Below are positions 22,557-26,343 of a DNA stretch of 29,277 bases, in pieces. This DNA is from a candidate division WOR-3 bacterium (GTDB lineage Bacteria > Hydrothermota > Tepidihabitantia > Tepidihabitantales > Tepidihabitantaceae): positions 1 through 29,277 of the forward strand of contig CBFGIT010000031.1 in the NCBI GenBank assembly GCA_965648905.1, given 5' to 3'. Each line of letters begins with the position of its first letter. The first letter of the stretch is position 1. The position numbers and the translations under genes are program-made. The notes below the pieces were generated by a model that was given only the letters and a program-made list of their open reading frames with translations, searched no databases and was not told the DNA's origin.

Positions 22557-23126
22557 TCAGCGGCCGTGTGCCAGACCGCGCGACAGTTCGATTGCCAGGT
22601 TTGCCACCCAGTCCGGGTCAGGGCCCAGAATAAAGAACAGCGGCTCTTTGCCCCAGCCGCGGGTTTCGTAGCAGATGGGCGGGACACTGCCGTGCTGCTC
22701 GACCAGGCGCCTTACCTTCCACGGGATGGAGCTACGGTCTCGGCCAATCAGTTCGTCAGGCTCGGTTGCCCGGTCGACACCGCCGAGTCTAAGTCCGTGG
22801 GCGCTGGCGTACGACCGGACGAACTCGAAGATGGTTTCGTTCCAGCGGAAGTTAAGTCCGGCCCGGATGGTCGGTTCATGCCTGCTTGCCTCGATGACCA
22901 GCCGTGCCATGTGGTCTGAGACGCCAAACCGCACCGGGCCTGAGGCTTTGGGTGCTCCACCGACCACGGTGATGCGGCCATCAACACCCGCGACCTGGGC
23001 CGGTTCATTGGCATGCTCTCTGGCGTAGACGAAGTTGACCCGCACCTCCGGGACAAGCAGGGCGAACTCAGGGCACGCCTCAAGCCGCCGTACTGCCTGT
23101 TCAAGGCGTTCGAGGACCTCGTTCAC
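22557..23126 (-). CDS. thiN: ThiN-type thiamine-phosphate synthase domain protein
   Basis: LLVPEVRVNFVYA...VAGVDGRIT...FGVSDHMAR...GWGKEP motifs. Confidence 0.85.
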   Translation of the reverse strand: MNEVLERLEQAVRRLEACPEFALLVPEVRVNFVYAREHANEPAQVAGVDGRITVVGGAPKASGPVRFGVSDHMARLVIEASRHEPTIRAGLNFRWNETIFEFVRSYASAHGLRLGGVDRATEPDELIGRDRSSIPWKVRRLVEQHGSVPPICYETRGWGKEPLFFILGPDPDWVANLAIELSRGLAHGR

Positions 23127-24169
23127 GCTCCGATTGCCTTGAAGTAAGCTGCCCAGAACGGGTCGGTGACCGGGTGAACCAGGGGTTGTTCGCGGCCGTT
23201 CTCGACCAGGGTTCGGCCCTTGCGCGTCACTTCGCCAATGACTGCAGACGGAATGCGCTTCTGCTTAAGCGCGGCCAGGATGGCGTCGGAATAGCCCGGT
23301 CGGCACATGATGATGAGCGTTCCTTCGCTGATGGACTTGTACGGGTCTATGCCGTAGAAGTCGCAGACCTCCAGAACGCAGGGCAGTACCGGCACCGCTT
23401 CCTTCACCACTCTCAGACCGAACCCGCCGGCCTGCGCCATCTCGTACAGCCCGCCCCAGAGCCCGCATTCGGTTGCGTCGTGCATGGCGGTGACGCCTCG
23501 GTCTCGTGTCCCGACACTCGTGGCGGCCAAGGCATCCTCGACAACGGTCATCTGCCAGAACAGCTTTTCAGCCCGGCGGGCAAATGCCGAGCCGAACTTC
23601 TCGGCGAGCCGGTCTGGGAACATAGCCGCGAAGATGCCGGCGGCCTCCACTGCCGGGCCTTTGGTGACGATGATTGAATCGCCGGGCCGGACAAACTCGG
23701 GGGAGACATACTCGGAAAGCCCGCCTTCGGCAATCGCGGTCGCACCGCCGACCATCGGATAACCGCAGTTGCCGTACCGCGCAGTGTGGCCGGTGACAAC
23801 CGAAACGCCGTAGCGCCGGCATTCCTGGTGGATGGTCTTCCAGACAATCTCCAACTGCTCCTCGGTCATCTGCATCGGCAGGTTCAGGTCAATCGCCAAA
23901 TACTTGGGCTTGAGCCCGCTGGTCACGACGTCGGAAAGGAGGATGTGAATCGCAAACCACGCCGCCCGTTTCCAGCCGTACTCCGGGACGATGAAAACCG
24001 GGTCGGTCGTCAAAGCCAGAGCCCGATTCCCGACCCTGATGATGCCGGTGTCAACACCATGCATCGGGCCAACAAGCACGCTGCGGCTCTTCGCGCCGAG
24101 ACGCGGATAGATGAGTTCCTCAAAGACCTGCTGGGATATCTTGCCGACCGGGGGAAGCTTGACTCTCAT
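23123..24169 (-). CDS. AIR synthase-related (PurM-like) protein
   Basis: VGKIS...GVDTG...TTDP...SDVVTSG...GHTARY...AMHDATECGLWG...ISEGTL; GTGA overlap with thiN. Confidence 0.88.
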   Translation of the reverse strand: MRVKLPPVGKISQQVFEELIYPRLGAKSRSVLVGPMHGVDTGIIRVGNRALALTTDPVFIVPEYGWKRAAWFAIHILLSDVVTSGLKPKYLAIDLNLPMQMTEEQLEIVWKTIHQECRRYGVSVVTGHTARYGNCGYPMVGGATAIAEGGLSEYVSPEFVRPGDSIIVTKGPAVEAAGIFAAMFPDRLAEKFGSAFARRAEKLFWQMTVVEDALAATSVGTRDRGVTAMHDATECGLWGGLYEMAQAGGFGLRVVKEAVPVLPCVLEVCDFYGIDPYKSISEGTLIIMCRPGYSDAILAALKQKRIPSAVIGEVTRKGRTLVENGREQPLVHPVTDPFWAAYFKAIGA

Positions 24170-24203
24170 GCTGCAATTCTACGATGCTCTGCCGGTCAGT
24201 CAA
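24167..24203 (-). promoter_or_regulatory. Promoter giving a probably leaderless AIRS-thiN mRNA
   Basis: TTGACT-N16-TAGAAT-6 nt-ATG; no RBS. Confidence 0.7.
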
Positions 24204-24300
24204 TCGCCGGCGACGGATGGTGGACATTGACAAACCGATGCTGGGACAGAGAATTAGCTGTTGCCCTTGCCGGGCAGAATTACGAAAGGACACCGCTTCA

Positions 24301-25191
24301 ATGAGAATCAGCGCATTACTGCTTGCTCTTGCGCTGGCCGCGTCGGCCAACCTGCTGGTCAACGGCGACTTCGAGCAGCCGTTCAGCGTCGGCTGGCGGG
24401 ATACGGTCAGCGACTTCGGTGGCGAGTATCGCATCGAGCGCAGCGATACTCTGGGCCAGCCCGTTCCTGGTCATGCTGCCCGAGTGTACAAGTTTCTGGC
24501 CGAGTTTGCCAGCTTGTATCAGACCGTGGACGTACCGGGCCCGGATCTGAGCCTTGAATTCGACGCCCGTTTCAGCATCGACGGCGGGTCTTCGACCTGC
24601 TGGCCGGTCGCATCGCTCTGGGTCAGATACCAGAACGCGTTCGGAGCCGAGCTGGGCAACACCAGGTTCTACCGGCACAGCCCGTACGCGACCTGGGTGC
24701 GCAGCGACACGGTCAATCTGATTGAGGTTACGGATAACGGTGTCTGGCGTCACTATTCGCTTGACATCGCCCAGGAGCTGGCCACTAATCTGAGAGGAGT
24801 CAATCCTGCCCAGGTGCGCAAGGTGACGATTGACCTGTTCGCGTACGGCAGTGGGACCTGAGGGGGCCCGATGGCGGAGGTCTCCGCCGACCAGATTACG
24901 CTCACGGCCAGTGGTGTGGAAGAAGCGTCGAACTCGGCTCGGCCGAGCGACATCAGCGTGTGCCCGAACCCGGCCCGGGGAAGAACGATAGTGAACTGCT
25001 CCTTGTCCGAGGTCGGCCCGTCGAGCTGGGCCCTGTATGACGCAGCCGGCCGCAGCGTGCTCAGCTCGACGCTCAGGTCCGGGACATCGTCATTCCCGGT
25101 CGACCTCAGGACCGTGCCAGCCGGCGTGTACGTTCTCAAGCTCTCGGGTGCGGTGAACGGGACCGCAATGATCAACCGGCTTCCAGACTAG
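24301..25191 (+). CDS. Probable secreted selenoprotein with T9SS C-terminal domain (UGA 24859-24861 read as Sec; 296 aa)
   Basis: Signal peptide + NLLVNGDFE CBM-like domain ...FAYGSGT-TGA-GGPMAEVSADQITL... is in frame with a T9SS CTD (VCPNP...LYDAAGRSV...PAGVYVLKL); SECIS-like hairpin 11 nt after the TGA. Confidence 0.72.
24873..24888 (+). promoter_or_regulatory. Putative bacterial SECIS element
   Basis: GGCGG-AGGTCT-CCGCC hairpin starting 11 nt after the TGA; same spacing and AGGUCU apex as the E. coli fdhF SECIS, but without its bulged U. Confidence 0.65.
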
Positions 25192-26343
25192 GTGAAGGGC
25201 GTGTTCCGCTCCGGCCCGGTCCTGCTCCAACTGACACTCGCCTTGACCCTGCTTGGTTGTGGGACAAAGCAGACCGTCTGGCAGAGAGTAATTGATACTG
25301 GCGGTCACGAAGACGCAGCCGCGATCGCCGTAAGCGGGTTGCATCTCTACGTTGGCAGTACGGTCCGCAATCTTCACTCGGACGCAAGCGTCTGGCTGGT
25401 CACCAAGCTGAGCCGGGACGGCAACGAGGTCTGGTCCCGCCTGTACAAAGACTCGCCCCGGGCCGTGCTCGGAGACCTGGTCGCGGACGAGCGCGGCAGC
25501 GTTTTCGTTGTCGGGCGGGCTGAGTTCGACAGCAAGCAGCTCTGCCTCGTTGCTCGATACGGGTTTGACGGAACCCTGGAATGGCAGAAAGGGCTGGCCC
25601 TGGGCGACCGAACCTGGGGAACCGGGATCTGTCGGCTGTCGGGCAATCGGCTCGCGGTCTGCGGCATGGCCGGTACGAAAGATAATGCCGACCACATGGT
25701 CGCGGTGCTCGACGCCGGCGACGGCAGGACCATCTGGACCCGGAACCATGACATTGGTCCGACCGACCTGGCCGTGCGCATCTGTGCGGACGCCCGGGAC
25801 AACCTGGCAGTTGTCGGTCAGTATGCGAAGGACGACAACTCGGATATCATCGTCATGAAACTGAACGATAAGGGCGATACGGTCTGGACCCGGTACTATG
25901 ACTCGGGCGGCAATGACGAAGCGGGTGACATTGCCTTTGACCCGTTCGGCAACGTCGTTGTCACCGGTACGGCCCGGGTCGGCGATTCGACCCGCAGCAT
26001 TATCCTCGAATACGACGGCGACGGCGGGGTGATACGCAAGGCCGCGTACGGCAAACAGGCTCAGGCGACCGGTCGAGCCATCAACATCACACCCGAGGCC
26101 GATATCTTTGTCACCGGAACGCTGCTCGGCAGACCGAGCCAGGTACTGGTCTATCAGTACGTGCCCAATGCACTGTCGGTCTGGGAGCGGCACTACACTT
26201 CGGGCGGCGATGCCTCAGGCGCTGACCTGGTCGTGCTCAAGGATGCGTACGTCGCCGCCACGGTCGAGAACAAGACCCGCGACCTGGCGGTCTACTGCTT
26301 CTCCAAGCCACCGCCACTTTCCCCTGCCGGTACGAGACAGTAG
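25192..26343 (+). CDS. Lipoprotein with beta-propeller (SBBP-like) repeats
   Basis: Lipobox LLGC; repeated K-L/Y-D..G..W-x-R-x-Y-D and IAxD..GN.VVTG blades; GTG directly after the upstream TAG. Confidence 0.8.
   Translation: MKGVFRSGPVLLQLTLALTLLGCGTKQTVWQRVIDTGGHEDAAAIAVSGLHLYVGSTVRNLHSDASVWLVTKLSRDGNEVWSRLYKDSPRAVLGDLVADERGSVFVVGRAEFDSKQLCLVARYGFDGTLEWQKGLALGDRTWGTGICRLSGNRLAVCGMAGTKDNADHMVAVLDAGDGRTIWTRNHDIGPTDLAVRICADARDNLAVVGQYAKDDNSDIIVMKLNDKGDTVWTRYYDSGGNDEAGDIAFDPFGNVVVTGTARVGDSTRSIILEYDGDGGVIRKAAYGKQAQATGRAINITPEADIFVTGTLLGRPSQVLVYQYVPNALSVWERHYTSGGDASGADLVVLKDAYVAATVENKTRDLAVYCFSKPPPLSPAGTRQ

Follow-up and report, generated by a model that had tools for sequence, protein, structure and literature searches.

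A probable selenoprotein family with a predicted type IX secretion tail in candidate division WOR-3 bacteria

The window, that is, the whole stretch of 29,277 nucleotides analysed here, comes from a candidate division WOR-3 bacterium and contains at positions 24301-25191 of the plus strand a frame of 296 codons that is broken only by a TGA at 24859-24861. When translated with table 11 this region appears as two open reading frames (ORFs), 24184..24861 and 24871..25191, and the preliminary description of this DNA had already pointed out that they run in a common frame with only TGA-GGG-GGC-CCG between them, an arrangement that is confirmed by the ORF coordinates and by the fused translation. 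The methionine that opens the putative signal peptide of the first ORF is located at 24301, and translation from this ATG with the TGA written as U yields 296 residues followed by a terminal TAG at 25189-25191. An orthologue from the same genus is 72% identical over residues 1-296 and likewise carries one TGA. The features of the gene are collected in the table below.

Features of the candidate selenoprotein gene and their positions in the window
Feature	Position	Strand	Details and basis
Whole gene of the probable selenoprotein	24301..25191	+	296 codons plus TAG stop; ORF translation
Putative signal peptide, residues 1-16 (MRISALLLALALAASA)	24301..24348	+	By inspection; likely cleavage after ASA
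N-terminal CBM-like beta-sandwich, residues 17-203, with the selenocysteine inside	24349..24909	+	AlphaFold2, VIA-align, Foldseek
TGC, Cys100 of GGSSTCWP; sole Cys of the N-domain; candidate partner of the selenocysteine	24598..24600	+	
TGA probably read as selenocysteine, residue 187	24859..24861	+	Column conservation in homologues
SECIS-type hairpin GGCGGA-GGUC-UCCGCC	24873..24888	+	Covariation, RNAalifold, fdhF match
C-terminal sorting domain of T9SS type A, residues 222-289	24964..25167	+	PF18962, TIGR04183

The genes that surround this frame have also been inspected. Upstream and in divergent orientation lies an AIR-synthase-related gene (23123-24169, minus strand) that the selD model recognises weakly, its 53 bits falling short of the cut-off, and that is followed by a ThiN gene (22557-23126, minus strand), a neighbour that makes it probably thiamine-related rather than part of selenocysteine metabolism. 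Downstream, a gene on the plus strand (25192-26343) begins directly after the TAG, and its product displays a lipoprotein-like leader (LTLLGCG) and weak matches to beta-propeller repeats (SBBP, PQQ_2). This downstream gene is kept only in the closest relatives (L012 and L078), and the neighbourhood formed by the AIR-synthase-like, ThiN and propeller lipoprotein genes is common only to L012, L015 and L078, giving no clue to function.

Regarding the architecture of the protein, its N-terminus (MRISALLLALALAASA, followed by NLL) resembles by eye a Sec-type signal peptide. Residues 17-205 match no Pfam family at E up to 0.1, and in NCBIfam release 20, which we take to contain the NF0-numbered models of the selenoprotein catalogue compared further below, only sorting-domain matches were obtained, none of them to the N-domain. 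The fold was approached by structure prediction, employing as AlphaFold2 input residues 15-212 plus an alignment of 50 rows. The resulting model is confident and all-beta (pLDDT 95.3, pTM 0.90) and places the selenocysteine in the loop that connects the penultimate strand with the final one, which corresponds to model residues 177-189. VIA-align relates it to 5w6h (Z 15.2), 8xmz (14.4), 2zew (12.8), 4bj0 (12.1) and 2xom (11.6), with 134-147 aligned residues and identities of 12-22%, and Foldseek gives E values of about 1e-6 against CBM-like structures; profile comparison added a weak match, with E 7.6e-5, to the C-terminal module of 5x7o. The beta-sandwich fold is thus shared with CBM4, CBM16, CBM61, a porphyran-binding CBM and the C-terminal domains of phage tailspikes, although, unlike the beta-sandwich CBMs, the N-domain falls into no Pfam CBM family. 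We know of no CBM module of this fold that holds a selenocysteine. Judging from the model, the term CBM-like is right for the fold and putative for carbohydrate binding.

At the other end of the protein, the sorting domain reaches 27.4 bits with PF18962 (cut-off 27) and 33 bits with TIGR04183 (cut-off 23). Like type A cargo of type IX secretion systems (T9SS) in the FCB group, the protein combines a putative signal peptide with a C-terminal Por_Secre_tail domain; unlike the cargo proteins found described in the literature searched, it has a predicted selenocysteine. The genome encodes a homologue of the SprA/Sov translocon (456 bits against a cut-off of 200) and dozens of frames bearing a C-terminal sorting domain; the GldM model found no match in the genome, its controls being equally silent. 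The family has eight paralogues in this genome, all of them with a similar hydrophobic leader at the start, and in the family the domain invariably takes the first place behind the putative signal peptide. Three of the paralogues are short (294-301 aa) and consist, in the form of the window gene, of the domain plus the sorting tail; four are long (616-1145 aa), with a sorting tail recognised by Pfam in three; and one is a stand-alone domain. In the middle regions of the long paralogues Pfam identifies Kelch repeats in the one located on contig C52 and gives otherwise no matches.

A first line of evidence on the nature of the TGA comes from its conservation. A six-frame search with the fused protein revealed seven more copies of the N-domain in the genome, with one in-frame TGA each, and the same kind of search in relatives found an in-frame TGA in nearly every one. 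An alignment was made of 51 copies of the domain, 43 belonging to relatives and 8 to this genome; five of the regions were taken on purpose because the search had flagged them as stop-free. In this alignment the column of the putative selenocysteine is occupied by TGA in 47 copies and by Cys, Ile, Ala and the end of a contig in one copy each, and conservation is seen on both sides of it. When a profile of the domain was run over 272 genomes of the phylum, 107 of them matched; exactly one TGA is present in 149 of the 150 best matches and none in the remaining one, with 114 further matches below these. In metagenomes, 47 loci were recovered, and the column is covered by 44 domain copies, with TGA in 40 of them and TGC in four. 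Neither TAA nor TAG was ever encountered at this position in the 51 aligned copies, the best 150 phylum matches or the 44 metagenome copies, which are kin sampled non-independently, so that all these counts overstate the number of separate events. The natural replacement in close homologues is TGC, encoding Cys, which occurs in five of them (L053, L071, L072, L073 and L074), and none has Trp; the five TGC homologues have their full-length database counterparts in P0007-P0010 and P0012. The two metagenome loci L071 and L072 show the short protein in tandem on a single contig, once as Sec form and once as Cys form, a natural pair for comparing both chemistries.

Beyond the TGA, 45 of the 47 Sec copies continue without a stop for 106 codons or more; the two others are a copy on contig C27, which ends after 28 codons, and one that meets the end of its contig. 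The best-conserved strand of the domain (WAEVSADD or WAKVFADD) stands on the 3' side of the TGA. In distant relatives that lack selenocysteine the column contains assorted residues, with Cys in 6 of the 22 proteins inspected, which indicates that selenocysteine or cysteine at this place is a specialisation of the clade and no requirement of the fold.

A second line of evidence is provided by the RNA that follows the TGA. A hairpin predicted by RNAfold opens 11 nt past this codon (spacer 24862-24872), with stem strands at 24873-24878 (GGCGGA) and 24883-24888 (UCCGCC) that enclose a GGUC loop at 24879-24882. The fold of the single sequence is unremarkable (z = -0.40, 68 of 200 shuffles being equally stable), so the significance of the hairpin resides only in comparative data. 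These were obtained from an alignment that starts at the TGA and includes 45 of the 47 Sec copies, L023 being left out because its contig ends there and L050 because of its much longer spacer. Columns 18-23 form standard pairs with columns 28-33 in 269 of 270 cells (99.6%), and four of the six pairs exhibit compensatory two-sided changes, pair types including GC/AU in 40/5 copies, GC/AU/CG in 23/21/1 and AU/GC in 37/8. The covariation score of 0.373 compares with 0.176 +/- 0.015 in shuffles and was reached by 0 of 500; when the 3' partners were slid as a control, only 21-64% of the cells paired; and RNAalifold independently predicts the identical helix. The loop is GGUC, with AGUU in some copies. 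From this covariation it can be concluded that the hairpin is under selection as RNA.

The same nucleotides also encode the (M)AEVSA of the last beta-strand. Since the codons for Ala-X-Val-Y-Ala supply the helix, its compensatory changes emerge in the protein as the residue pairs E/S, K/F, R/L and Q/C. In the Cys forms, two of the six hairpin pairs are lost in four of the five, while L053 retains five of the six. At the level of known elements, the E. coli K-12 record of fdhF has the UGA at codon 140 followed, after 11 nt, by GGUUGCA-GGUC-UGCACC, and the preliminary description had been correct in equating the spacing and the loop of both elements. The likeness to fdhF comprises the in-frame UGA, the 11-nt spacer, a short stem closed by A-U and the GGUC loop. 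The two elements differ in that the WOR-3 helix is perfect, without the bulged U and with no extended lower stem conserved, and in that it is built from conserved strand codons (A-E/K/R/Q-V-S/F/L/C-A); furthermore, the product of fdhF is a cytoplasmic molybdoenzyme, whereas the WOR-3 host protein is predicted to be secreted. An Rfam scan of 24700-25050 with E up to 10 returned two noise hits and no SECIS family. A covariance model of the hairpin (R1) run over the whole genome recovered only its eight training sites and no other selenoprotein families.

The genome also possesses the machinery for selenocysteine insertion. selA, selB, selC and selD are all present with scores above the curated cut-offs, SelA reaching 482 bits, SelB 348 bits (cut-off 242) and tRNA-Sec 72 bits (gathering score 47). 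For SelD, two genes are encoded that contain one in-frame TGA each (C4:87631-88554 and C8:88040-88942, listed as L037 and L038); their Sec motifs are AAGU-AAK and CAGU-ASK, and the one on C8 adjoins selB (C8:89013-90884). In the phylum SelA was detected in 122 of the 272 genomes. Family and SelA occur together in 101 genomes, the family only in 6, SelA only in 21 and neither in 144, a tally made by hand to which no statistic is attached because related genomes are non-independent. The six genomes with the family and no SelA match (G022, G058, G186, G191, G203 and G223) are drafts, 74-96% complete. Regarding the use of stop codons, all eight paralogues terminate in TAG, and where the true stop of a family member is reached, in 27 cases, it is TAG in 21, TGA in 4 and TAA in 2; TAG closes 46% of the long frames genome-wide. 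This preference of the family for TAG may reflect the avoidance of a second UGA.

Taken together, the comparative evidence makes it very probable that 24301-25191 is one gene encoding a selenoprotein of 296 residues with a canonical bacterial Sec-insertion signal. UGA187 would be decoded as selenocysteine by the bacterial route, in which the 6-bp hairpin with its GGUC loop, 11 nt downstream, would recruit SelB carrying Sec-tRNA(Sec). To judge from its domains, the preprotein would cross the inner membrane by means of its signal peptide and would fold into a CBM-like beta-sandwich with the selenocysteine in the loop before the last strand, and the C-terminal sorting domain would then hand it to the type IX system for display on the cell surface or release. 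The central proposal of the preliminary description, a new secreted selenoprotein composed of signal peptide, CBM-like domain, selenocysteine with an fdhF-like SECIS, and T9SS tail, is thereby supported by comparative and domain data, as are its expectations that the genome would hold the Sec machinery (SelA, SelB, two SelD and tRNA-Sec) and that homologues would keep TGA or Cys at this column. Observations that count against decoding as selenocysteine are the unremarkable stability of the hairpin in the single sequence, the lack of an Rfam match, the absence from the hairpin of the bulged U of the fdhF fold, the existence of drafts that gave no SelA match among the family bearers (6 of 107) and the five hairpin pairs retained by the Cys form L053.

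Termination at UGA is always in competition with selenocysteine insertion, and the sorting domain lies wholly downstream of the TGA. Both facts speak for the suggestion, also made in the preliminary description, of a selenium-dependent localisation switch in which a periplasmic product of 186 residues and a T9SS-secreted Sec product would both be functional. This suggestion found no support in the analysis, and we regard it as improbable. The TGA is placed inside the folded domain, before a last beta-strand that is conserved in every copy, so that termination would give a truncated domain instead of a second functional product; in addition, the long paralogues continue for 429-515 codons past the TGA, which makes a stump unlikely as a designed product.

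Even less likely is a selenium-free read-through, by which the hairpin would stimulate a near-cognate tRNA (Trp, Cys or Arg) to decode the UGA. In general, read-through of a stop codon can be favoured by a stable hairpin that follows it. Against this reading, the family tracks SelA, which is present in 101 of its 107 bearers and absent from 144 of the 165 family-free genomes; the spacer and the GGUC loop equal those of the SelB-binding element of fdhF; and close homologues have Cys as the natural replacement at the column.

A true stop, which would mean that there are two distinct genes, that the gene is a pseudogene or that the assembly is wrong, is highly improbable and was rejected. It agrees with the behaviour of gene callers, which annotate two genes, with the 115 of the 120 best database relatives that end at the TGA, and with the ATG located in the window 9 nt past the TGA (24871), preceded by a purine-rich stretch. 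Nevertheless, among 45 aligned copies only 6 have a start codon (ATG or GTG) at this position, and this, together with the continuation of the domain past the TGA, implies that the second ORF is no gene of its own. Moreover, TAA and TAG never substitute for the TGA in the copies compared, the last strand of the domain is downstream of it, and the arrangement recurs in eight paralogues and in 107 genomes across the phylum. Finally, a change in the meaning of TGA throughout the genome, of the kind known from genetic codes 4 or 25, has nothing but the in-frame TGA itself in its favour and was discarded as having a negligible probability, given that TGA is a normal stop in this genome that terminates 478 of the 1082 open frames of at least 400 codons, that the SelA and SelB frames are free of internal stops, and that each family member contains one TGA, always at the same column.

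If, as the conservation and the hairpin argue, residue 187 is a selenocysteine, the distribution of cysteines around it becomes informative. In 30 of the 47 Sec copies the Cys of the GGSSTCWP motif is present and no Cys adjoins the selenocysteine, whereas 15 of the 47 lack the GGSSTCWP Cys and carry instead a Cys at the position immediately before the selenocysteine (Sec-1), often within C-U-x-G-H-C; the remaining two have neither and show a Cys at -3 or +4. In the metagenome Sec copies the distal column has a Cys in 39 of 40. The remaining one, L084, counts against the need for a partner, since Ser occupies its Cys column and no Cys is found up to 4 residues away from the selenocysteine. This either/or pattern, which depends on few old paralogue splits, fits with the idea of a selenol that needs one thiol neighbour, and pairing of the selenocysteine with the Cys of SSTCWP, as contemplated in the preliminary description, is plausible. 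That Sec187 and a nearby Cys would constitute a redox-active or a ligand- or metal-binding centre on an extracellular scaffold of the glycan-binding type is a possibility whose chances we put slightly below even.

A subfamily from other families of the order (L055, L056, L060 and L062-L069) is characterised by N-G-C-U-x-G-H-C and lacks Cys in the TCWP column. Judged by the motif, its Cys, Sec, His and Cys within six residues look like a metal site. In the database protein P0136 the selenocysteine is replaced by Ala, the flanking C and GHC being kept.

At the annotation level, the family is numerous and has been recorded in truncated form. Entries named "hypothetical protein", with a length of 179-194 aa and their end at the TGA, account for 115 of the 120 nearest in the databases, and the nearest relatives with a named source are labelled candidate division WOR-3 bacterium. 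Among representatives clustered at 50% identity the number of matches is 461 with E at or below 0.001 and 105 with E at or below 1e-30, and for 130 of the 150 representatives listed the match reaches no further than the Sec column. To several truncated family members (P0041, P0060, P0063 and others) one database source attaches the name "uncharacterized protein (DUF779 family)" or else "opacity protein-like surface antigen", labels that look spurious because the window protein gives no such Pfam match. The family was found in 107 of the 272 genomes of the phylum and is confined to one phylum among the genomes searched.

Nearly all bacterial selenoproteins known, according to PMC13188914, are intracellular or periplasmic redox enzymes, many of them with thioredoxin-like folds. 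The same work includes envelope examples in its catalogue of 119 families, such as a TonB-dependent receptor with the motif FCYXU and families with a CU motif. No similar family, motif or secretion tail appears in that catalogue as given in its Table 1, and passage searches of PMC13188914 and of the BSepDB paper (PMC13326102) brought up no secreted or extracellular selenoprotein of this sort. The WOR-3 proteins resemble families of PMC13188914 in having a single selenocysteine that adjoins or is paired with a Cys, with a C-U dyad in one subfamily. In the literature on T9SS cargo no selenoprotein was found described, and in that on WOR-3 and selenocysteine nothing relevant was found. We could not find this large family of selenoproteins with predicted T9SS export described, the Haft 2023 and 2025 families having been compared through Table 1 of PMC13188914.

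The WOR-3 family differs from the known selenoproteins in three ways, namely another fold, the predicted export by the type IX system and its multi-copy nature, with eight paralogues in this genome. Because gene callers systematically split its members, predictions of proteomes and functions in the phylum miss real proteins. The interlacing of the SECIS-type hairpin with the codons of a beta-strand constitutes a clean natural example of coupled constraint on RNA and protein, and the coupled residue pairs that result from it provide a simple signature for finding more members. In a wider and clearly more speculative reading, T9SS surface proteins throughout this uncultured phylum would bear an N-terminal "selenol cap", a CBM-like module whose exposed selenocysteine would act chemically outside the cell together with its partner Cys; we consider this rather doubtful, and the same tentativeness applies to the functions that might be imagined for it, such as capturing sulfur or selenium species or oxidised glycans covalently, reducing them or, equally conjectural, the binding of metals through the C-U-x-G-H-C variant. 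If true, the cap would represent the first extracellular catalytic selenoprotein family in bacteria and would supply a reason to spend scarce selenium on exported proteins. The family also makes testable the question of why anaerobic, uncultured bacteria would export selenium.
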